Notes: generated by a model not told the origin, from the sequence alone. A stretch of 64,000 bases of DNA from a virus (IMGVR_UViG_3300034062_005355), one strand, 5' to 3'. Positions 2,734-15,368 are shown, counted from the first letter of the stretch. Program-made: numbers and translations.

Positions 2734-2919
2734 TTAATTAAAATTTTTATTATTTAGTTCTTTAATAGTTAAATCATTATTTTTCCAACTTTTCCAATTT
2801 TCAAAATCTTTCAAATCTTCTAATGTTTTTTCATGGACCAAAACAAACCCTTCGGGAGCGATATTAGATAATTTTAACATCGGACCTTCTTTTTTTAAAA
2901 TTTCTTTAATATTAATCAT
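2734..2919 (-). CDS. Hypothetical protein
   Basis: 61-aa ORF packed in operon with neighbours. Confidence 0.6.
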   Translation of the reverse strand: MINIKEILKKEGPMLKLSNIAPEGFVLVHEKTLEDLKDFENWKSWKNNDLTIKELNNKNFN

Positions 2920-3487
2920 TTAAAAATTTGATTACTTTTTCTTTTATTCCCGATTGTTTGATCCCTTCATTACCATTTGGAGTTAAGACAAAGTTATCCA
3001 ACCCCCAATCCTTCCAAGATTCCCCATTTTTACCCATGTTCAAATCATCAATTGAGACCCAATGAGTAATCTCAGGATGGTCATGTAGGTATTGTTTAAT
3101 TTCAATAACTCGACTCATTTCCAAATCCCATTTTGGGTTCCAAACCCAAACATCTTTATTATACCAAGTACAATTACCTAGATTTAATGTAAATGCGATA
3201 GGTTTTTTAATAATCCCTTTGGATTCATAATATTTACCCATCTCTTCAAGAGTTGCAAAATTTTTCCAATCTGATGAAACCACAATTTCTGCTCCTGTTT
3301 CTTCCAAAATTTCGTTAAGGATGTTAATCGCCTTTTGATTGAAATTATCAAAACGATATTCAAGTGGTATTTCATTCATTGAGATGGATGTATTCCGTTC
3401 ACCCCATTTTTTTTGTTTCTTATGTCGACTTCCCCATTCGGTTAATAAACAAATTACACCGTCATGATCTAAAAATATAACTTTCAT
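2912..3487 (-). CDS. HAD-superfamily protein (HAD_SAK_2 / RNA-repair-associated type)
   Basis: KVIFLDHDGV motif I, IVVSSDW motif II, WVSIDD motif IV. Confidence 0.8.
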   Translation of the reverse strand: MKVIFLDHDGVICLLTEWGSRHKKQKKWGERNTSISMNEIPLEYRFDNFNQKAINILNEILEETGAEIVVSSDWKNFATLEEMGKYYESKGIIKKPIAFTLNLGNCTWYNKDVWVWNPKWDLEMSRVIEIKQYLHDHPEITHWVSIDDLNMGKNGESWKDWGLDNFVLTPNGNEGIKQSGIKEKVIKFLND

Positions 3488-3560: not shown

Positions 3561-3785
3561 ATGACAGTAGAAAACAAAACTTGGAGGAGGGTATTCCAAG
3601 ACAATTTATCCCAACTATTTCTAATGATAGCACTATTCTTCAATCCTTTTGGGTTCGATGCTGTTCAGTATGGACTAATCTTATGGACAGGAAGTTTATG
3701 GAAAGCCAACTTTGTGTTGTATTGTGTTGCGGTAGTATTTTTTGGATTATATATCTACTTTCGCAGATTATCTAAAAAACCTTAA
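3561..3785 (+). CDS. Small membrane protein
   Basis: Two hydrophobic segments and a basic C-terminus. Confidence 0.65.
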   Translation: MTVENKTWRRVFQDNLSQLFLMIALFFNPFGFDAVQYGLILWTGSLWKANFVLYCVAVVFFGLYIYFRRLSKKP

Positions 3786-5299
3786 AGCTCACTTAATTGT
3801 CCTGATTTGAATGCCTCAAAATTCGGACCTTTTTTCAAATAAAACTGATTACCTTTTTTGTCGTAATCTAATATTCCTGCTAATCTTGCTGAGTTAAATA
3901 ACCCACTTAGTTGTCCTCTAAATGCTGATGGTATCTGCCAATTATTTTGATTTTTATGAGAATAGTATGGTTTTCCGTTAACGTCTTTTTTCTGTAGTGA
4001 ACCTATATCAACTAAAAAATCTAATTTTGTTCCTTTGTTATCTGAGTCTAAATAATCAACTAGTTTTTTAATTAATCCAGAATCTTTTCTTTTAAATGTG
4101 AATCCGTAACTACTTCTATTTGGAGTCCAAGTTGACTTTCCTCCGTGAACTAAAGACATAAATTCAGGAGATTGTTTCATTTTATCAACAACCCTCCTAG
4201 TGATTTGATAGTTTATATCTTCAGATATTTTTTTAATCTCATTATCGGTTTGGAGTTTTGGTATATTATATTCTAAGTTAAAATCTAACTTTTCAATATG
4301 TAAATCAAAGTCAAGAGTGGTATTACTATCATCCCAACTAAATCCGATACTAAGAACTAAAAGAGAGGGGTAGTTAATATCATAATTTAAAACAATCATA
4401 ACCGTATATTGGTCAACATATTCACCATCAATAGAAATGTTCATCTCCATTGCTGCGTGATTTGTCATATCATCATTAATATCTAATGGTAATAATAGAT
4501 TTGGGTTAGAATACTCAATTCCGACTGATTCTTTAGTTTTTAATTCTCCACTCACAGTATATAAACCTTCACTAAAAAGTTTTTCAAATAAATCGTATTT
4601 TGATTTAAGAACACTTTCCTCGTAATTTTTTCTAACCAGCTCAATAACTTTTGGTGCTCCAAGACTAAAAATATCTTGTTCTCTTGAGCTCATTGGAGTG
4701 TCTGTCGCGTCATACCAAGTTTCTGTATTGGGTGTTATATGTATTGCTATCTTATAAAACTTATTTGATTGGTCAAAATTCTTTAATATTATGTAATATA
4801 ATCCCTGGTTACCAATTGTATGGGTTTCAAAATAAGATGATTGACTTTCCATTGCGGTGCACCATCTTGTACCAGCACCATATTTACAAGATGCTCTATA
4901 AGTTAATGGTTTAACTATTAAAATATTCTTATCTTCAAATATTTTTTCCGCTCCTGATGCATCAAACTTATTTAATTGTGATTTTGAAGATGTGATATGT
5001 GACTGTATCGCATTTTTTAATCTATCAAGGTTGTATTGATTAATATCTTTAATTTCTAAAGATTGTTTGAATCTGTCAAAATCTTTAACAAGTTCTATCG
5101 CGTCGTCAATTTCCTCATTGGATGTGTTTGGGTGTAATTCTCGTAATACGAAATCGGCATATTTGAAATTGGTATCTGCTAAATCAGAAATACCTAAAAT
5201 AAAATCCAATGTTTCAGGATATTCTTTAAATTTATTAGAGTATTTTTTTCGTAAATCTTCTTTACGACCTTCTTTTATAAGGATTGGAGTTAATCTCAT
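3782..5299 (-). CDS. Hypothetical protein with SCxYGxxTxWCT motif (paralog of 5913..7727); likely start MRLTP at 5299
   Basis: LIVKPLTYRASCKYGAGTRWCTA; TATTTATA motif 3 nt upstream of the ATG at 5299. Confidence 0.8.
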   Translation of the reverse strand: MRLTPILIKEGRKEDLRKKYSNKFKEYPETLDFILGISDLADTNFKYADFVLRELHPNTSNEEIDDAIELVKDFDRFKQSLEIKDINQYNLDRLKNAIQSHITSSKSQLNKFDASGAEKIFEDKNILIVKPLTYRASCKYGAGTRWCTAMESQSSYFETHTIGNQGLYYIILKNFDQSNKFYKIAIHITPNTETWYDATDTPMSSREQDIFSLGAPKVIELVRKNYEESVLKSKYDLFEKLFSEGLYTVSGELKTKESVGIEYSNPNLLLPLDINDDMTNHAAMEMNISIDGEYVDQYTVMIVLNYDINYPSLLVLSIGFSWDDSNTTLDFDLHIEKLDFNLEYNIPKLQTDNEIKKISEDINYQITRRVVDKMKQSPEFMSLVHGGKSTWTPNRSSYGFTFKRKDSGLIKKLVDYLDSDNKGTKLDFLVDIGSLQKKDVNGKPYYSHKNQNNWQIPSAFRGQLSGLFNSARLAGILDYDKKGNQFYLKKGPNFEAFKSGQLSEL

Positions 5300-5321
5300 A
5301 TATATAAATATATGGGAAACA

Positions 5322-5349
5322 AAAAACCCCATCACAAGGACAGGGTTTT
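5322..5349 (-). terminator. Probable terminator downstream of ssrA
   Basis: Minus strand aaaaccctgtc-cttgt-gatggggttttt (G-U-rich stem plus U tract). Confidence 0.55.
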
Positions 5350-5359
5350 ATGTTAAATG

Positions 5360-5747
5360 TGGAGTAGCGCGGATTCGAACCGCGGTCTTCCCTACTCAAT
5401 AATAAATGACTACACGTTTAGGATAATGTTTGCTAACATTCCAAAATTCACAATTCCCTTATTTTTAAAGTGGTTCGGTTTACTGAGAACTAATCCTCCA
5501 CTTGTTTCTTTTAGGATAGAAACCACACCCTATAGAGATTTATGTTCCAAGGTTAATATCTCCCCGACCTGAATATAGTTTTGCTTACGCTACTTCTACA
5601 AGCTCATCTTGTTTTACAAGACCTAATAGAGCCATTTTGTTTAACACGTTGCCGTATAATTGTTATTACCATAGATTTAAGTGATAGGAAACATCTCACT
5701 ACGTGCCACCGATTACAGACATATGAAATCAATTGCCTTTCTACCCC
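5360..5747 (-). ncRNA. ssrA: tmRNA (one-piece, ~388 nt)
   Basis: 5' GGGGTAG pairs with 3' CTACTCC-A giving an alanyl G3.U70 acceptor stem; T-arm CGCGGTTCGAATCCGCG; internal tag ORF at 5653..5585; CCA not fully encoded. Confidence 0.92.
5585..5653 (-). other. tmRNA proteolysis-tag reading frame (A)GNVLNKMALLGLVKQDELVEVA*
   Basis: AATTATAC-GGC-AAC resembles the canonical resume context; the frame ends in TAA after an Ala codon; resume codon inferred. Confidence 0.7.
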
Positions 5748-5765
5748 ATAAATTAAAGAACTTAA

Positions 5766-5845
5766 AAATCACTTTCGCCCCCTGTATAGACTTTCGTCGG
5801 ATGTTTAAGGTCAGCCTTAACTATTAAGGGAGCCACCCGTGATTT
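5766..5845 (-). ncRNA. Unassigned structured RNA leader upstream of ssrA
   Basis: Closing stem AAATCAC/GTGATTT, stem GGGTG/CATCC, hairpins TTAAGG-CTGA-CCTTAA and GAC-GAAA-GTC, possible pseudoknot CTCCCT/AGGGGG; GC-rich within AT-rich DNA. Confidence 0.6.
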
Positions 5846-5851
5846 GTTGTA

Positions 5852-5882
5852 CAAAGGTAATAATAAATATGGAAATTCCAAA
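5852..5882 (-). promoter_or_regulatory. Bacteroidota promoter driving leader RNA plus ssrA
   Basis: Minus strand TTTG-N19-TACCTTTG; predicted start near 5845. Confidence 0.7.
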
Positions 5883-5912
5883 CAAATATGGTATTTATAA
5901 TAAAAATCAACG

Positions 5913-7727
5913 GTGATAATAATAGAAGGTAAAAAAGAAGATGTTTCAAAACGTCTAAAACAGAGGTTTGAATACGATAGTTCATTCATTGACCGTATGC
6001 TATCTGTAGACCCAACAGGGTACAAATACGTTGATTATATTGCTAAACAACTTGAAAAATTAATCCCACAACTTGCAGGACGAAAGGGTGGTCTTAATAT
6101 AACACAACAAGATGCAATCAAAGACATCTTATCAATGGTTATTCCATGGTTTCATAATAATGTTAATAGAATAACTGAAGACGATATTTGGAAAGCGGAA
6201 ACAATTTTTAGAGAACAAAATGGTATGGTACCAAATATTGAAGGGATTGCCAAATCATTTAAAGACATTGCCCAGTATGAAGATCCTGAGTTTATTAAAA
6301 CTTTGATGGATATTATTGATTCTAAAAAAACCGAAAGAGAAAAAGAAAGGGAGTTAAAGAGTCAGGCTGAGAGATTATATGAAGATGATGATGTATTGGT
6401 GATTAGACCAAAATCATATGCAGCATCATGTTATTATGGTGCAAACACAAAATGGTGTACTGCCGGTAAGGGAAGTTCGGGTTATTATGATAGGTATGCC
6501 AATAGAGGTTTGTTATATTACTTTATTAAGAAAAAAGAAAATAAGAAAATGGCCTTATACAGAAATACAGAAGATAGAACAAATGAAGTCTATAATGCCC
6601 AAGATACTGAAGTAACTGTGAATGATTTAAGAGAGACCTTCCCAAATCAAAATGATTTAATTGACGATTTAATAGGTGTTGGAGAATTTATTAAAACACT
6701 TAGAGAGTTTTCCAAAGGTAAAATTGATTCTCGTGAATTGGAAGATTCTGACGAAGCAATTCTTAAAGTTAAACCTTCAGACCCATTAGGACAAAGTACA
6801 ATTATAATTGATTTTGGAGACGATACAAAATTCTTTAAATCACTAGACATATCTGAAGACGACCAATGGTTTTTAAATGGAATAAATTCACATTATGGTA
6901 GTTATGAATTTATGGATTCATATCAAGTAGAACAAGATTTTAAAGAAGGTTATGTAGTCTATGGTGACCTCAATAAAGAAAATAAGGAAAAGTTAAAAGA
7001 AATTGCCGAATTAATATTACCAGGGGAAGAATTTGATTTGGATAACGACGAATATAGAGTTAGATTATCGGAAACATTATTAAATTTATTTGATGATGAA
7101 ATGGATTGGATTCTTGGTGATTATGTTTCCGAAAAGAATAGTGAGATGCAAACAACCGCTCAAACATCAATTGAAAAAGAAATTAATAGTTTTTTGGAAT
7201 CTATTGGGTTTGTACTTTTTAGAGATTACGACCAAATTGCAACTACCGCAGCCAATTTATTAATGTGGTCCGCAAGATTACAACTACCAAAAATAGATAT
7301 AATATCTTTATTTAATCAAATAATTGAATATTCAGGCACTAGACGACTAGGTGGTTGGTCTGAAGATTCATATGAATATCAAGATTATGATAATTTTGAT
7401 TTAGTATCTTTTAATAACTCTGTTGAACGTCAATTTGAAAAAATTTTAGAAAAACTTGATGAGGATGAAGATGCTGGTGGAGAGAAAATTAAAGAGTTTT
7501 TAGGGTTTAGAGGTAGAATTGTTAAAAAATTTGGATTAAATAAATGGAACAAATTGCCTAGTGATAAAACTGTTTCATTTAAAGTTGAAGGGTTTGACCG
7601 AGAAGAAATGAAAGTTATTATTCGTGTTGAAAAACAATATAAAGGTATGAGACAATTAAAATTGTCTGAAGAAAATTTCAATAATTTATTATATTCCCCA
7701 CAATTATTTGATTTATTTGAAGTTTAA
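5913..7727 (+). CDS. Hypothetical acidic protein with SCxYGxxTxWCT motif (paralog of 3782..5299)
   Basis: VLVIRPKSYAASCYYGANTKWCTAG; GTG start; TATTTATA at 5892-5899. Confidence 0.85.
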   Translation: MIIIEGKKEDVSKRLKQRFEYDSSFIDRMLSVDPTGYKYVDYIAKQLEKLIPQLAGRKGGLNITQQDAIKDILSMVIPWFHNNVNRITEDDIWKAETIFREQNGMVPNIEGIAKSFKDIAQYEDPEFIKTLMDIIDSKKTEREKERELKSQAERLYEDDDVLVIRPKSYAASCYYGANTKWCTAGKGSSGYYDRYANRGLLYYFIKKKENKKMALYRNTEDRTNEVYNAQDTEVTVNDLRETFPNQNDLIDDLIGVGEFIKTLREFSKGKIDSRELEDSDEAILKVKPSDPLGQSTIIIDFGDDTKFFKSLDISEDDQWFLNGINSHYGSYEFMDSYQVEQDFKEGYVVYGDLNKENKEKLKEIAELILPGEEFDLDNDEYRVRLSETLLNLFDDEMDWILGDYVSEKNSEMQTTAQTSIEKEINSFLESIGFVLFRDYDQIATTAANLLMWSARLQLPKIDIISLFNQIIEYSGTRRLGGWSEDSYEYQDYDNFDLVSFNNSVERQFEKILEKLDEDEDAGGEKIKEFLGFRGRIVKKFGLNKWNKLPSDKTVSFKVEGFDREEMKVIIRVEKQYKGMRQLKLSEENFNNLLYSPQLFDLFEV

Positions 7728-7747
7728 GAATAAATTTCTTATATTTG
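7716..7747 (+). promoter_or_regulatory. Bacteroidota promoter
   Basis: TTTG(7716-7719)-N20-TATATTTG(7740-7747), 4 nt before the ATG at 7752. Confidence 0.7.
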
Positions 7748-7751
7748 CTTC

Positions 7752-8591
7752 ATGAATAATTTAGAACTACTAAAAAACGTATTAAGCGTTCCAACTAAGA
7801 CATATCAAGAAGAAAGAATGGTTGCGTTTTTGGTTAATTGGTTAACCGAAAATAATATTACACATTTTGTTGATGAATATCATAACGTATATGCAACAAA
7901 ACAAGAATCGTCAGAATTACCTGAAGATTTTTATTTCCCATGTGTTATTTCCCATACTGACACCGTTCACAACATTGACACAATTAATATTAAGGAAGAA
8001 ATGTTATTCAATGCTCAAGGAGAGGAAAAACTATCTTACAAAGCGTATAACGACCAAGGAAACCCAACTGGTATTGGTGGTGATGACAAATGTGGTGTTT
8101 TTGCTTGTTTAACTTTACTACAAGAATTACCAAATGTTAAAGCCGCGTTCTTTGTATCCGAAGAAACTGGTTGTCATGGTTCACTTAAAGCGAGTAAAGA
8201 ATTTTTTAAAAATGTTGGGTATGGAATTCAATTTGACGCACCTGAAAATTGGATGATTACAGAAAAATGTTTTGGCCAAGTATTGTTTGACAGGGATACA
8301 GAATTTTTTGAGGCTTGTGATAAAGTTTTGACTGAAGGAATGAATCAAAATGATATGGAGTACATGGTTCACCCTTACACTGACGTATATGCCCTAAGAA
8401 GTAAGTTTAACTTCTCTTGTATTAACATTTCGATTGGATATTACAATTATCACACAAAACATGAATATGTGGTAGTTGAAGATGTTTTTAACGGAATTGA
8501 TCTGGGTAAGAAAATGATTGAAAACCTTGGGAATAAATTACACTACAAGAAATCAGTTAATTACGACTGGAAAACTCGGTTAGTATTTTAA
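7752..8591 (+). CDS. M20/M28-family Zn metallopeptidase-like protein
   Basis: ISHTDTVH, GIGGDDKCG, FFVSEETG, SIGYYNYHTKHE. Confidence 0.8.
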   Translation: MNNLELLKNVLSVPTKTYQEERMVAFLVNWLTENNITHFVDEYHNVYATKQESSELPEDFYFPCVISHTDTVHNIDTINIKEEMLFNAQGEEKLSYKAYNDQGNPTGIGGDDKCGVFACLTLLQELPNVKAAFFVSEETGCHGSLKASKEFFKNVGYGIQFDAPENWMITEKCFGQVLFDRDTEFFEACDKVLTEGMNQNDMEYMVHPYTDVYALRSKFNFSCINISIGYYNYHTKHEYVVVEDVFNGIDLGKKMIENLGNKLHYKKSVNYDWKTRLVF

Positions 8592-8776
8592 TTATAAGTC
8601 GGATGAGAAATTATCCGATTTTTTTTGTCTTTAGGTTCATTGTCATGACCACATTTATGACAAATATATAGGTCATCACCACCATCAGAAATATCCCAAC
8701 TATGTGGACACTCATCACATAAAACTTTACCGTCTTTAACGGTTTCTCTGATAATTCTTCTGATTAACTCTTTCAT
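8588..8776 (-). CDS. Small Zn-ribbon protein
   Basis: CDEC...CHKC; ATG at 8776; TATTTATA upstream (8781-8788, minus strand). Confidence 0.7.
   Translation of the reverse strand: MKELIRRIIRETVKDGKVLCDECPHSWDISDGGDDLYICHKCGHDNEPKDKKNRIISHPTYN
8596..8627 (+). terminator. Intrinsic terminator
   Basis: gtcggatga-gaaa-ttatccgat followed by a T8 run. Confidence 0.65.
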
Positions 8777-8790
8777 CAAATATAAATATA

Positions 8791-8820
8791 TAAAAAAAGG
8801 GGGATTTTCATCCCCCTTCT
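8791..8820 (-). terminator. Terminator after clpC
   Basis: ggggga-tttt-catccccc hairpin; U tract on the minus strand. Confidence 0.6.
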
Positions 8821-8823
8821 TAA

Positions 8824-10839
8824 TTATCGTCCTTTCTTTTGGACCACCACATTTTCATCCACTACTTTGATGAGATAAGTTTTACCCTCAATCATCTTAC
8901 CTGTTAGAACTTCTTCAGACAATAGGTCTTCAACCTTATCTTGAATTGCTCTTTTCAATGGACGAGCTCCGTATAATTCATCATAACCAATCTTAGCAAG
9001 ATACTCAACCAATGAATCATCGTATGTGATGTTGTATTTCATGTCTACAAGACGAACTACCAACTTCTTTAATTCAATGTCTGTAATCTTTTTAATATCC
9101 TCTTGAGATAAAGAATTAAATACGATTGTATCATCAATACGATTTAAGAACTCAGGAGAAAAGAAATTCTTCATTTCTTTCATTAACATTTGTTTCTTAG
9201 CTTCTTCATTACTATATGCGTTTGAAGAGAAACCAATACCTGTTCCAAATTCTTGTAGTTTCTTAACCCCTAAATTTGATGTCAAGATAATCAAGGTATT
9301 CTTGAAGTTAATCTTACGACCTAAACTATCTGTCACATGACCATCATCCAAGATTTGAAGTAAAACAGTGAATACATCTTTGTGTGCTTTTTCCACCTCG
9401 TCAAACAAGATAACTGAATATGGTTTGTTTTTAACTTTTTCAGTTAACAATCCACCTTCTTCATAACCAACATAACCCGGAGGAGCTCCCACTAATTTAG
9501 AAATACTATGTTTCTCTTGGTATTCTGACATATCCACACGGATAAGTGAATCTTCAGAACCAAACATTTCCTTAGCCAATTGTTTTGCCAAGTATGTTTT
9601 ACCAACACCAGTAGAACCCAAGAACACGAATGAGCCAATTGGACGGTTAGGGTCTTTAATGCCCAAACGGTTTCTTTTAATAGATTTTGCAATCTTAACA
9701 ACAGCGTTGTCCTGACCAATAACTTTACCAATTAAGTTTTTGTCTAAATCTAACAATGATTTTGTGTCATCAACGCTCATTTTGTTTACAGGAATTTTGG
9801 TCATGTTTGAAACAACATCGTATACGTGTTCCAACAAGATGGTTTGTTTTTCCTTCGCCAATTGTTCTTCAAACTTAATTTTTTCTTGCTCAAGTTTTAT
9901 TAACAATTTCTTCTCCTTGTCACGAAGTTCTGCTGCTTGTTCGTAGTTTTGTTTTTTAACCACATCAATTTTTTGTTGTTTGATATCTGCAGCCTTCTTT
10001 TTAAGGTCTTCAATAACATCAGGAACTTTTAAGTCAGTTTGCATTCTTGCCCCAACCTCATCCAAGATGTCAAACGCTTTGTCAGGAAATTCACGGTCAG
10101 TGATATAACGGTCTGCCAACTTAACACAAGTTTCAATAACCTCATCACTGTAATTTACCTTGTGGAAGTTTTCGTATTTGTCACGAACATTCTTAAGGAT
10201 TTGAATTGTTTCATCAACTGATGATGGATCAACAATTACTTTTTGGAATCTACGTTCTAACGCTCCGTCTTTTTCAATGTTCTTACGGAATTCATCCAAT
10301 GTGGTTGCTCCAATACATTGAAGTTCACCACGAGAAAGTGCTGGTTTAAAGATGTTTGAACCATCCATTGAACCTGAAGAATTACCTGAACCAACCAAAG
10401 TGTGAATCTCGTCAATAAACACAATGATGTTTGGATTCGCCTGAAGTTCTTCAATAATCACTTTCATTCTTTCTTCGAATTGTCCACGGTATTTGGTACC
10501 AGCAACAACTGAAGTTAGGTCAAGGTTAACAATACGTTTGTCAATTAAGTTACGAGGACATTCCCCATTAACAATTTTAATTGCCAAACCTTCAACAAGA
10601 GCAGTTTTACCACAACCAGGTTCACCAATAATAATTGGGTTATTTTTCTTTCTACGAGATAAAATCTGAGCAATTCTCAAAATCTCTCGGTCACGACCAA
10701 TAACAGGGTCAAGTTTACCCGCCTCAGCTAATTTATTTAGGTCTCTACTGAAGTTGTCTAATACAGGTGTGTTTGAATCTGCAGATGATTTTGATTTTTT
10801 ACTCATCATTTTGTCGTCATCGTCCATTAAGTCGTTCAT
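8824..10839 (-). CDS. clpC: ClpC-like Hsp100 AAA+ ATPase lacking the N-terminal Clp-repeat domain (likely start MNDL at 10839)
   Basis: D1 GEPGCGKT/FIDEIH, UVR middle domain KKQNYEQAAELRDKEK, D2 GSTGVGKT/LFDEVEKAH, ClpP-docking IGF loop, GARPL. Confidence 0.9.
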   Translation of the reverse strand: MNDLMDDDDKMMSKKSKSSADSNTPVLDNFSRDLNKLAEAGKLDPVIGRDREILRIAQILSRRKKNNPIIIGEPGCGKTALVEGLAIKIVNGECPRNLIDKRIVNLDLTSVVAGTKYRGQFEERMKVIIEELQANPNIIVFIDEIHTLVGSGNSSGSMDGSNIFKPALSRGELQCIGATTLDEFRKNIEKDGALERRFQKVIVDPSSVDETIQILKNVRDKYENFHKVNYSDEVIETCVKLADRYITDREFPDKAFDILDEVGARMQTDLKVPDVIEDLKKKAADIKQQKIDVVKKQNYEQAAELRDKEKKLLIKLEQEKIKFEEQLAKEKQTILLEHVYDVVSNMTKIPVNKMSVDDTKSLLDLDKNLIGKVIGQDNAVVKIAKSIKRNRLGIKDPNRPIGSFVFLGSTGVGKTYLAKQLAKEMFGSEDSLIRVDMSEYQEKHSISKLVGAPPGYVGYEEGGLLTEKVKNKPYSVILFDEVEKAHKDVFTVLLQILDDGHVTDSLGRKINFKNTLIILTSNLGVKKLQEFGTGIGFSSNAYSNEEAKKQMLMKEMKNFFSPEFLNRIDDTIVFNSLSQEDIKKITDIELKKLVVRLVDMKYNITYDDSLVEYLAKIGYDELYGARPLKRAIQDKVEDLLSEEVLTGKMIEGKTYLIKVVDENVVVQKKGR

Positions 10840-10895
10840 ATATTTTATAGATTTTTTACAAAGTAACAACAAATTTTATACATCTCCAAATAATT

Positions 10896-10939
10896 TGTCA
10901 AATTGTCAGTAATATTTTTTTATAATGACATAATGTCAT
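10896..10939. promoter_or_regulatory. Putative operator: perfect inverted repeat ATGACA-TAA-TGTCAT plus two extra TGTCA half-sites
   Basis: Inverted repeat at 10925-10939; TGTCA at 10896-10900 and 10904-10908; lies in the clpC/UVR divergent gap. Confidence 0.45.
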
Positions 10940-11001
10940 ATAATATTTGTTTTATCTGAAAAAATGACTTATATTTATCAAAGGAATAAATTTTGATACC
11001 A

Positions 11002-11032
11002 CAAAGATATAAAATAAATTTACAAAAACAAA
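11002..11032 (-). promoter_or_regulatory. Bacteroidota promoter for clpC
   Basis: Minus strand TTTG-N19-TATCTTTG. Confidence 0.6.
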
Positions 11033-11038
11033 AAAAAT

Positions 11039-11437
11039 ATGTTTAACAAAAGAAACTTTAATTTTAACTTTGACGAGTTAATAGCTCGTTATGAAAAAAT
11101 GATGGAAGATTTCCATAAAACGGATTGGTCGGAAAAAAGTTATGAATCACCTGATGGTTCATATAAAGTGACTAGTTACTATAAGGTATTTGATTTATCA
11201 GATTTAGACAAGTCAAAACAAATGAGTAAAGAAGAATACCTTAAGATTAAACTTCAAAGGGCAATTGAAACTGAAGATTTTGAATCAGCAATTAAATTGA
11301 GAGACCAAATTAAAAACTTAGAATCAAATCAAGAAGAAATTGAAAAAGTTGAACTTGAATTGAAAAAAGCAATTAAGGAACAAAACTTTGAAATGGCGAT
11401 TGAACTCAGGGATGAATTAAAAAAACTGAAGTCTTAA
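11039..11437 (+). CDS. Tandem UVR (UvrB/UvrC motif) protein, McsA-C-terminal-like
   Basis: LQRAIETEDFESAIKLRDQI and LKKAIKEQNFEMAIELRDEL. Confidence 0.8.
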   Translation: MFNKRNFNFNFDELIARYEKMMEDFHKTDWSEKSYESPDGSYKVTSYYKVFDLSDLDKSKQMSKEEYLKIKLQRAIETEDFESAIKLRDQIKNLESNQEEIEKVELELKKAIKEQNFEMAIELRDELKKLKS

Positions 11438-11440
11438 ATG

Positions 11441-11467
11441 AAACCCTCACCAAATGGTGGGGGTTTT
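11441..11467 (+). terminator. Intrinsic terminator
   Basis: aaaccctcacc-aaat-ggtgggggtttt. Confidence 0.75.
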
Positions 11468-11479
11468 GTATTTATATAC

Positions 11480-11662
11480 ATGAAACCTTTTGAATTATAT
11501 TTAAATGGATCTTTAACTTTAAGAGAACTACTTAATACATATATTGAGTTAAGACAGCATTTCCAAGAATATTTAAAACCATTAATGGAAAAAATAAACG
11601 AATTAACCCCACTAAGTAAAGATGGCTATAGTCAAAGAAGAAATCAACGGGACGAAGATTAA
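11480..11662 (+). CDS. Hypothetical protein (start moved to 11480)
   Basis: The track start lies inside the terminator; ATG 11480 follows TATTTATA at 11469-11476. Confidence 0.5.
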   Translation: MKPFELYLNGSLTLRELLNTYIELRQHFQEYLKPLMEKINELTPLSKDGYSQRRNQRDED

Positions 11663-11864
11663 AAACGAAATAAAATCGTCAAATATTAAATCAACTGAAT
11701 ACGATACTGAAACAAAAGATTTAGTTGTTGAATTTAATAACGGAGCAAAATACAAATACGATGGGGTTCCCCATCAGGTTTATACAAAACTTAGGTTAGC
11801 AGAATCTCAAGGTAAATTTTTTACCACAGATATCGCAAAAAAATACCCATATAAAAAACTTTAA
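11622..11864 (+). CDS. KTSC domain protein
   Basis: SSNIKSTEYD..TKDLVVEFNNGAKYKYDGVP...AESQGKFF. Confidence 0.9.
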   Translation: MAIVKEEINGTKIKNEIKSSNIKSTEYDTETKDLVVEFNNGAKYKYDGVPHQVYTKLRLAESQGKFFTTDIAKKYPYKKL

Positions 11865-11885: not shown

Positions 11886-12611
11886 ATGAATAGTTTTCAA
11901 AAAATCCTTGATAGTTTTTCTATTAAGGACACATTAAACCCAAAAATTTGGGAATCCCCAAAAGAACCTAACAAAGCGGTTATGATACCAAAAGTTAGAA
12001 AAGCTCTTACGCGTATTGCGGAAGAGTTTATTGATTATTTGGGTGATGATGTTTTTGTGGACGATATTCATCTCACAGGTTCATTGGCAAATTTTAATTG
12101 GTCAGAATTTTCAGATTTTGATTTACATGTAATTGTTGATTTACAACAATACGAAAACCAAAGTGAATTGTATAAAGAATTGTTTAATTTAAAAAAACAA
12201 GTTTTCAACGACAAACATAATATTAAGATTTTTGGTTATGATGTTGAGTTATATGCTCAAGATGCAGAAGAACCACATTATAGTTCGGGAGTTTATTCTG
12301 TTATGAATGATGAATGGATTAGTAAACCAAAAAAATTCAAGAATGAAATTGATAAAGGTGTGCTTGAAAAAAAGATAAAAACTTGGACAGAAAAGATTGA
12401 TACTGCAATTGACGAGGGCAAAGATTTAGAAACAATTAAGACTAAACTCAAAGATTATAGAAAGGCTGGGTTAGAAAAAGATGGTGAATTATCTTATGAA
12501 AATTTAGTCTTTAAGTTTTTAAGAAGGTCAGGTCACATAGAAAAATTATTTGATACCGTGAATAAAGAGACAGATAAAGAGTTGTCTGTTGAAAGAACAA
12601 TTCAAGAATAA
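11886..12611 (+). CDS. Pol-beta superfamily nucleotidyltransferase
   Basis: LTGSLANFNWSEFSDFDLHV (GS...DxD) and a later VELYAQD acidic residue. Confidence 0.75.
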   Translation: MNSFQKILDSFSIKDTLNPKIWESPKEPNKAVMIPKVRKALTRIAEEFIDYLGDDVFVDDIHLTGSLANFNWSEFSDFDLHVIVDLQQYENQSELYKELFNLKKQVFNDKHNIKIFGYDVELYAQDAEEPHYSSGVYSVMNDEWISKPKKFKNEIDKGVLEKKIKTWTEKIDTAIDEGKDLETIKTKLKDYRKAGLEKDGELSYENLVFKFLRRSGHIEKLFDTVNKETDKELSVERTIQE

Positions 12612-14497: not shown

Positions 14498-15368
14498 TAA
14501 AAAAGCCCTTGAATTGATTGATAAAGGTTTATCATCTAAAACAGTTAGTAAATTAACTGAATCACAGATTAATGTATTACATAAAAAATTATTTGTTGAA
14601 GAAACAATGGTATCAAAAACAGATGCTGAGACAATTAGTAAATTAAAAAGTGAAAAAAAACCATTTCAAGTTTATGAAAAAGAACTGGATGAAGAAGAAG
14701 AAGTAACTTTAGACCCAAATAAAGATACTGAGACTCAAGACCCTCATCAAGTAGGTCCTTCATCAGATGATGGATTTGGTGATGAAACGGATGGTATGGG
14801 AATGATGGAAGAAAAAGATGGTCCAAATCCTTGGGCTATTTGTCATTCACAAGTTGGACCTAAAAAATCAAGAAAATGGGAAAGATGTGTTAGAGAAGTA
14901 AAAAAACAATTGAAAGAAGGGAAAAATCCTGTATCTTTGTTCTTGGAAACTCAAATAGAAAGAATAGTGGAAAAACATATACCCCCAAGAATTACAAAAG
15001 GAGATTTAATGAAGGTTCTTTCAGAATCAGAACCAACAACTGCTCCAACAAAACCAAAAACAAAACCTGGTACAAAACCTGATACAAGACCAAGACCATC
15101 TCATCCTGGTAAAAATCCAAACCCTGGTGAGAATCCTGCTCCAAAGGCTAAAAAGAGTGAAACAAAGGAACAACAAACCTCACCTGCACCAACAACAAAA
15201 CCAGCACCAACAAAACCTGGTACAAAACCTGATACAAGACCAAGACCATCTCATCCTGGTAAAAATCCAAACCCTGGTGAGAATCCTGCTCCAAAGGCAA
15301 AAAAAGTTTCTCCTGAACAGGCTAAAGATAAAGTGATTGATGTGATAATGAACTTATTAAAGAAATAA
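14487..15368 (+). CDS. Hypothetical protein with a small Cys module and a duplicated Pro/Lys-rich segment
   Basis: NPWAICHSQVG...WERCVREVK; duplicated KPGTKPDTRPRPSHPGKNPNPGENPAPKA. Confidence 0.8.
   Translation: MKVNKKALELIDKGLSSKTVSKLTESQINVLHKKLFVEETMVSKTDAETISKLKSEKKPFQVYEKELDEEEEVTLDPNKDTETQDPHQVGPSSDDGFGDETDGMGMMEEKDGPNPWAICHSQVGPKKSRKWERCVREVKKQLKEGKNPVSLFLETQIERIVEKHIPPRITKGDLMKVLSESEPTTAPTKPKTKPGTKPDTRPRPSHPGKNPNPGENPAPKAKKSETKEQQTSPAPTTKPAPTKPGTKPDTRPRPSHPGKNPNPGENPAPKAKKVSPEQAKDKVIDVIMNLLKK
15059..15298 (+). repeat. Perfect 90-nt direct repeat (15059-15148 and 15209-15298)
   Basis: Identical copies 150 nt apart, in frame. Confidence 0.9.

Follow-up and report, generated by a model that had tools for sequence, protein, structure and literature searches.

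Several phages are known to carry parts of a machinery for tagging or degrading proteins. Among the closest described cases is Bacillus megaphage G, a giant phage with its own transfer-messenger RNA (tmRNA), which encodes the tag AKLNITNNELQVA, and its own Clp protease genes, the link between the two being only presumed (PMC12484599). Phage ssrA genes, sometimes accompanied by SmpB, are also known in Bxz1-like mycobacteriophages (PMC4131195) and in huge phages (PMC7162821). On the protein side, a close counterpart is S. aureus ΔN-ClpC-F436A (Jenne et al. 2025), which has no N-domain, reads SsrA-type degrons through its pore and is adaptor-free once its middle-domain contacts are broken (PMC12583610). 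Here we analysed a 64,000-nucleotide stretch of viral DNA (IMGVR_UViG_3300034062_005355), referred to as the window, in which positions 5,360 to 11,437 hold a tmRNA gene, a gene for an M20-type peptidase, a gene for a ClpC that lacks the N-domain and a divergently transcribed gene for a protein with two UVR motifs. The original prediction had placed these four elements within 6 kb, and matches to Rfam, Pfam and PHROG find each of them in its place. The window is part of a family of ~310-320 kb freshwater phages infecting Bacteroidota. We read the region as a protein-quality-control corner, in which the tmRNA, ClpC(P), the peptidase and an optional helper encoded beside ClpC form a loosely coupled phage toolkit, and we give this reading a little less than an even chance. 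Phage G differs from this locus in several respects: it has ClpX and not ClpC, clpP and clpX sit side by side in its genome, a tandem-UVR protein is missing, the tag counts 13 residues against 21-22 here, and its host is a Firmicute and not a member of the Bacteroidota (PMC12484599).

The ClpC gene (8824-10839, - strand) encodes 671 aa from the ATG at 10839, which is probably the true start. The protein contains two AAA+ modules, with Pfam matches to AAA (3e-23), AAA_lid_9, AAA_2 (3e-69) and ClpB_D2-small, and its motifs are intact, namely Walker A (GCGKT/GVGKT), Walker B (DEIH/DEVE) and the pore loops KYR and GYVG. The middle domain (9841-10023, -), a coiled coil with a UVR-like motif, aligns to residues 395-484 of B. 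subtilis ClpC and scores 20.0 bits with the Pfam UVR model, slightly below the cut-off of 21.5. The residue aligned with F436 at the tip of this domain is an aromatic Tyr (codon 9943-9945), and the tip aromatic position is conserved in all phage and Bacteroidota homologues compared. The I-G-F tripeptide of the ClpP-docking loop (9229-9237, -) is part of GTGIGF and corresponds in alignment to the A-G-F loop of S. aureus ClpC. No Pfam match to the Clp_N repeat domain, at which adaptors, phospho-arginine and ClpS bind in canonical ClpC, was found in the window ClpC, and its alignment to the phrog_4871 profile begins at position 155 of 764. Domains, alignments and profile start thus agree with the earlier description of a ClpC with both ATPase rings, a UVR-type middle domain and an IGF docking loop, but without the N-domain. 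With that domain missing, the phage protein is a ClpC derivative and not a canonical ClpC.

The nearest cellular homologues are nearly all from Bacteroidota (Flavobacteriales, Chitinophagales, Cytophagales), with 55-60% identity over both AAA+ rings and with matching middle domain, pore loops and ClpP loop, and sequence comparison indicates that the phage ClpC was captured from this group. The two differ at the N-terminus. All 80 of the 80 fetched Bacteroidota homologues are 840-880 aa long and carry ~160 extra N-terminal residues, the N-domain, whereas the phage copies, drawn from over 597 IMG/VR contigs (80 retained), are all 664-691 aa, each having lost the N-domain, with an unconserved tail of ~20 residues standing in its place. 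Neither a stand-alone Clp_N gene nor a second Clp-type ATPase, ClpX included, was found in the three complete relatives in which genome-wide presence and absence were assessed. A ClpC without N-domain is also found in two unrelated huge phages, LR756502 (642 kb; L173, LR756502.1 428673-454384) and LR756508 (484 kb; L174, LR756508.1); the first has two strong ClpP genes and a weaker third, and the second has a tmRNA (72 bits). A quick maximum-likelihood tree, which is unrooted and does not place LR756508 reliably, unites the lake-phage proteins in a single clade (support 100) and nests the LR756502 protein in cellular Bacteroidota ClpC (support 95). The latter position implies that the N-domain was lost at least twice, independently, and the repetition of this loss in a second phage lineage is in itself evidence that carrying the N-domain is a disadvantage for a virus.

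The S. aureus work offers a guide to what such a loss may do. ClpC of this species deprived of the N-domain shows a rise in ATPase activity while proteolysis stays off (PMC12583610). ΔN-ClpC-F436A, in contrast, degrades GFP-SsrA as well as the MecA-activated wild type does, and without an adaptor, since it is the pore and not the N-domain that reads the SsrA tag (PMC12583610). By analogy, the phage ClpC may be the natural counterpart of the N-domain deletion, and the UVR protein would be a reasonable candidate for breaking the middle-domain contacts. The S. aureus protein was engineered in the laboratory; the phage protein was shortened in nature and still has an aromatic residue (Tyr) at the tip, so that by the S. 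aureus paradigm it would still need something to break its resting state.

The original prediction held that the phage ClpC borrows host ClpP, and indeed no ClpP was found in the window. The relatives speak against this part of the prediction: full-length ClpP, located ~22-32 kb from ClpC, is encoded in 8 of the 10 related records searched, including those with 92-96% ClpC identity, and ClpX in none. These are bona fide ClpP proteins, scoring 187-196 bits with PF00574 and 169 bits with S. pneumoniae ClpP (1y7o), with the catalytic triad of Ser (in AASMG), His (in LHQ) and Asp and with the N-terminal docking loops (MTPYILEE). From the orientation in relatives, the ClpP gene would be expected before the window start, its presence in the window's own genome being predicted from the closest relatives. 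As the latter encode a true ClpP, ClpC probably need not borrow the host protein; and as ClpC is the sole Clp unfoldase in the phages that carry ClpP, the ClpC-ClpP pair is probably coupled.

In one complete genome of 321 kb, which has terminal repeats, ClpC occurs without ClpP, yet the docking loop of ClpC is kept. This genome bears on a further explanation, that the N-less ClpC acts without ClpP as an unfoldase or disaggregase, for instance in virion assembly or in keeping the very large phage proteome soluble, together with Hsp20 where this is present. Small heat-shock proteins classically feed Hsp100 disaggregases, and an Hsp20 gene stands beside ClpC in 19 loci. We nevertheless hold this explanation to be very improbable: the docking loop, which is absent from ClpB and Hsp104, has its G and F invariant in all 47 sequences of the ClpC motif alignment, the ClpP-less phage included, and most relatives do encode ClpP.

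The tandem-UVR protein (UVR2, 132 aa; 11039-11437, +) is matched twice by PF02151 (E = 5.3e-15), with motifs at ~11222-11329 and ~11336-11431. It was first described as a divergent protein made of two UVR motifs; the motifs and the opposite strand stand, but the protein has in addition an N-terminal region of ~55 residues, which is a helix plus a β-hairpin in an AlphaFold2 model of moderate confidence (predicted local distance difference test, pLDDT, 67). The same model gave no match in a Foldseek search against the PDB (best E = 0.38; pLDDT 67). The family of this protein comprises 234 clusters at E < 1e-10, small proteins throughout; their Phe-rich N-terminus varies, the W...S-x-D-G hairpin is conserved, and each of the two UVR motifs keeps the Phe matching the ClpC tip residue F436. 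Small UVR proteins of LR756502 were considered as family members and set aside, since UVR occurs only once in each and their architecture differs, one of them combining a bifunctional-nuclease domain with UVR.

The closest solved sequences are the UVR of McsA for the first motif (E = 4e-6), the C-terminus of UvrB for the second (E = 6e-5) and then the ClpC middle domain (E = 3e-4). McsA, the activator of the arginine kinase McsB (PDB 8wtb), resembles the phage protein in being a small UVR protein of the ClpC regulatory network and in giving the best match to the first motif. It has, however, N-terminal zinc fingers and one UVR, and identity of the two proteins is ruled out, because the phage protein lacks cysteine altogether, contains UVR twice and begins with a helix and β-hairpin instead.

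That UvrB and McsA outscore the ClpC middle domain in this comparison suits another explanation, in which the tandem-UVR protein targets the host, either by blocking UvrB/UvrC excision repair or by deregulating or silencing host ClpC through its middle domain. Distant members of the UVR family lie on contigs without an adjacent ClpC, which with lengths of 1.4-4 kb are too short to infer that ClpC is absent, and the UVR gene is dispensable for phages that keep ClpC. A precedent for a phage modulator of host ClpC is SPO1 Gp53, which like the UVR protein is small and has been proposed to redirect ClpC-dependent proteolysis, but which acts on host ClpC, is not a UVR protein and comes from a phage without its own ClpC (PMC6873191). 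We consider a host target improbable, as within the phage family the UVR gene is always beside ClpC and alternates with a chaperone gene in that position. The host and phage ClpC middle domains are alike, so that a binder of one probably binds both, and in this respect a host target overlaps with action on the phage ClpC.

The position of the UVR gene is informative. Where it is present in relatives, it always lies 150-200 bp upstream of ClpC and on the other strand. This slot holds a UVR gene in 46 loci, an Hsp20 gene in 19 and neither in 23, and in no locus does it hold both; the two are also mutually exclusive genome-wide in complete genomes. The UVR gene is found in all three ClpC clades, but roughly half of the relatives and two of the three complete genomes lack it. 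The alternation of a protein with a ClpC-type motif and a chaperone beside ClpC is the best positional argument for a role of the UVR protein in ClpC biology. Two further ideas about the slot were tried and rejected. The UVR protein is not derived from Hsp20 as far as homology can be detected (hhalign probability 2.4%), and the tip aromatic is not altered in UVR-less lineages into a natural equivalent of F436A, the middle domain being equally conserved with and without UVR.

The Hsp20/α-crystallin proteins of the slot are ~130 aa long, carry a C-terminal I-x-I/L motif and score 44-52 bits with PF00011; examples are L020:9436-9831(-), L029:9404-9874(-) and L050:9466-9849(-), with 16 more loci. 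In L052:9426-9899(-) and L084:9441-9878(-), which have neither UVR nor Hsp20, the slot encodes proteins starting with MKKVI(K/R)LTE. In the window, ClpC and UVR2 are separated by a putative divergent control region of 199 bp (10840-11038) with promoter-like hexamers, as read from the sequence. The best promoter-like site of the locus, TTGACA-17-TAAAAT (10873-10901, -), precedes the ClpC ATG. An ATGACAT/ATGTCAT palindrome at ~10927-10941 (region 10920-10945) lies between TATAAT-like boxes and may be an operator or a bidirectional promoter element.

The tmRNA (ssrA) gene (5357-5747, -) was not called by ARAGORN in the window; it is matched by Rfam RF00023 with 54.8 bits against a gathering score of 47 (E = 9e-19) over model positions 1-374, that is, over the full length. 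Most relatives have a tmRNA homologue at the syntenic position. Among the 63 distinct relatives compared, ARAGORN calls the homologous gene in 11, and five of the six relatives tested pass RF00023 with 50.6-90.3 bits. The tRNA-Ala-like domain is present, with a 5' GGGGUAG that pairs with a 3' CUACUCC and gives the G3-U pair in the acceptor stem. The T-arm is canonical, of the GGUUCGAAUCC type and reading CGCGGUUCGAAUCCGCG in the Rfam alignment. The gene ends in A-CA-U and not in A-CCA, so the CCA end must be added. No SmpB gene was found in the window; a phage SmpB is encoded in two of the three complete relatives and absent from the third, and host SmpB may serve the tmRNA instead.

The tag reading frame, taken from the Rfam alignment, has 22 codons and a stop (5585-5653, -; GNVLNKMALLGLVKQDELVEVA). 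In 60 of the 63 relatives this frame stays open over 21-22 codons and encodes 44 different peptides, which follow the pattern [G/D]-[N/E/D/K]-[V/T]-[L/F/I]-x-K-[M/L]-x-x-hydrophobic-G-L-hydrophobic and mostly have a non-polar V-x-A end. Gly11 and Leu12 are invariant among the relatives, and variability is highest at third codon positions (1.20 bits), followed by first (0.82) and second (0.61) positions. The tag is thus specific to the phage family and under coding constraint. Compared with GENNYALAA and GENNYAMAA, the tags of the freshwater Bacteroidota that own the nearest ClpC genes, it has the Gly resume codon in common but exceeds them by 12-13 residues. A conserved internal core, unlike the host type, hints at a dedicated reader. 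The family also stands apart from the tmRNAs of Bxz1-like and huge phages in that its tag is long and conserved family-wide and its RNA divergent enough to escape ARAGORN in most members.

In relatives, tRNAs, a GOLLD RNA and a group I intron are found beyond the tmRNA. The GOLLD RNA (RF02032, ~300 bits) lies ~2 kb beyond the tmRNA in L065:16365-16758(-) and L075:16944-17351(-) and is followed by tRNA genes. At L045:15130-15346(+), the group I intron (RF00028, 75 bits) borders or splits the 3' part of the tmRNA homologue matched by nhmmer at 14764-15159, which may be an intron-split phage tmRNA, and the tmRNA 3' ends of L043 and L063 are similarly odd.

The fourth element, the peptidase (7752-8591, +; 279 aa), is a PepT-like M20 metallopeptidase reduced to the catalytic domain. 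It exceeds the cut-off of PF01546 (27.9 bits against 24.6) and matches phrog_4191 (1.6e-35). Its motifs HTD, GGDDKCG, SEETG and YNYHTKHE align with the metal and catalytic motifs of peptidase T (1vix), in agreement with the M20-type assignment made earlier, and the lid/dimerisation domain is missing (279 aa against ~410 aa).

Taken together, these parts would combine as follows. The N-less ClpC would join with phage ClpP, or with host ClpP where the phage has none, in a phage-run protease. Without the N-domain, ClpC would escape host adaptor control and pick its substrates through the pore, and the proteins tagged by the phage tmRNA would be the obvious candidate substrates, the peptidase then trimming the released peptides. 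The slot beside ClpC would encode a helper that the phage can do without, the tandem-UVR protein in some genomes and a small heat-shock protein in others, and the former, with its two copies of the tip motif, may cap the ClpC middle domain and so keep ClpC out of the resting state. That the four genes work as one circuit is a plausible and well-motivated hypothesis, judged by sequence and by analogy with S. aureus ClpC. The strongest form of it, that giant Bacteroidota phages run their own adaptor-free ClpC-ClpP, which escaped host control by recurrent, independent loss of the N-domain, which the UVR protein unlocks and for which the private 21-22-residue tag marks substrates for destruction, appears unlikely to us.

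The arrangement of the genes argues for looser coupling. Synteny of the four genes in related genomes had been proposed as a check, and we followed it in 87 related contigs with ClpC identity of 70-96%. The order tmRNA - 604-aa gene - peptidase - ClpC - (UVR) - KTSC - nucleotidyltransferase - further genes is kept almost everywhere that flanks allow, but the unrelated neighbours are equally syntenic and about half of the relatives lack the UVR gene, so that the check bears out the order without singling out the four genes. Terminator-like hairpins stand directly behind the tmRNA (5323-5349, -; an 11-pair stem and a T run directly after the tmRNA 3' end), the peptidase (8596-8621), ClpC (8794-8821, -) and the UVR gene (11438-11469), with 10 such sites found against 2.7 expected. 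A terminator of its own behind each element indicates four separate transcription units, and separate transcription suggests a loosely coupled toolkit and not an operon. Contigs from four lake metatranscriptome libraries cover parts of the tmRNA, parts of ClpC and the UVR gene of a relative, with a depth of up to 99 at the tmRNA against 2-10 elsewhere. They leave the peptidase and the 604-aa gene uncovered, gaps that say nothing about silence. Such contigs are weak evidence that may include carried-over DNA and cannot prove transcription.

Several observations weigh against one working system, and most of them suit a different explanation, in which these are independent auxiliary neighbours: the tmRNA would free ribosomes, host ClpXP or Lon would handle the tagged products, ClpC, peptidase and UVR protein would act separately, and the gene order would be mere collinearity. 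The neighbouring KTSC and nucleotidyltransferase genes, among others, are as syntenic as the four genes, which points to collinearity and not to a module, and each element has its own terminator. The tmRNA borders an RNA-gene island, with the tRNAs, GOLLD RNA and group I intron that lie just beyond it in relatives, which accounts just as well for where it lies. Among the complete genomes, components come and go independently, ClpP being absent from one, SmpB from one and the UVR gene from two. At least 6-9 losses of the UVR gene have occurred with no accompanying change in the ClpC middle domain, and the slot could be a general hot spot for small genes. As ΔN-ClpC of S. aureus is proteolytically inactive alone, lineages with an empty slot would need another way of activating ClpC. 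Finally, the unrelated huge phages with N-less ClpC carry other gene sets, with only parts of this one. On the other hand, full independence does not sit well with ClpC being the only Clp unfoldase in ClpP-carrying phages, by which at least this pair is probably coupled, with a tag of non-host type whose conserved core suggests a dedicated reader, or with a slot whose two alternative occupants are both related to proteostasis. We regard independent genes as possible, though less than probable, and prefer the loosely coupled toolkit.

The DNA is AT-rich, with a G+C content of ~30% and dense coding over the 64-kb window, and the sole DNA-level relatives of the stretch are uncultured phages. Upstream, the window contains a fragment of a class I/II aminotransferase at its edge (3-965, +), a protein with an M23 peptidase domain (1288-2382, -) and a HAD_SAK_2 domain protein of RNA-repair type (2912-3487, -). 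Between the tmRNA and the peptidase, in the window as in relatives, lies the gene for a 604-aa protein of unassigned function (5913-7727, +; phrog_17056, phrog_28193), for which no Pfam family match was found and a protein Atlas search gave viral hypothetical proteins only. It has a 517-aa paralogue (3782-5335, -; phrog_17056, phrog_28193), and the two paralogues point opposite ways, one on each side of the tmRNA gene. Downstream of the UVR gene follow a KTSC-domain protein (11622-11864, +) and a nucleotidyltransferase (11886-12611, +; phrog_36119). A predicted open reading frame of 74 aa (11438-11662, +), which is 30-60% conserved in relatives, has its start inside the terminator-like hairpin after the UVR gene and may not be a real gene.

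In the literature we found no report of a phage ClpC without N-domain, of the tandem-UVR family, of this tag family or of the UVR/Hsp20 swap. To our knowledge, phage tmRNAs and phage Clp genes have been catalogued in genome surveys without an established role, and we know of essentially no study of ClpC control in Bacteroidota. The phage family presents a natural version of an engineered ClpC state characterised only in 2025, together with a private tag, a ClpP and a candidate middle-domain binder, and the UVR/Hsp20 swap gives a lead to new ClpC regulators in Bacteroidota. If the circuit were true, this would be a virus running its own degradation code, by which the phage would either separate its own quality control from that of the host or turn tagging into a weapon.

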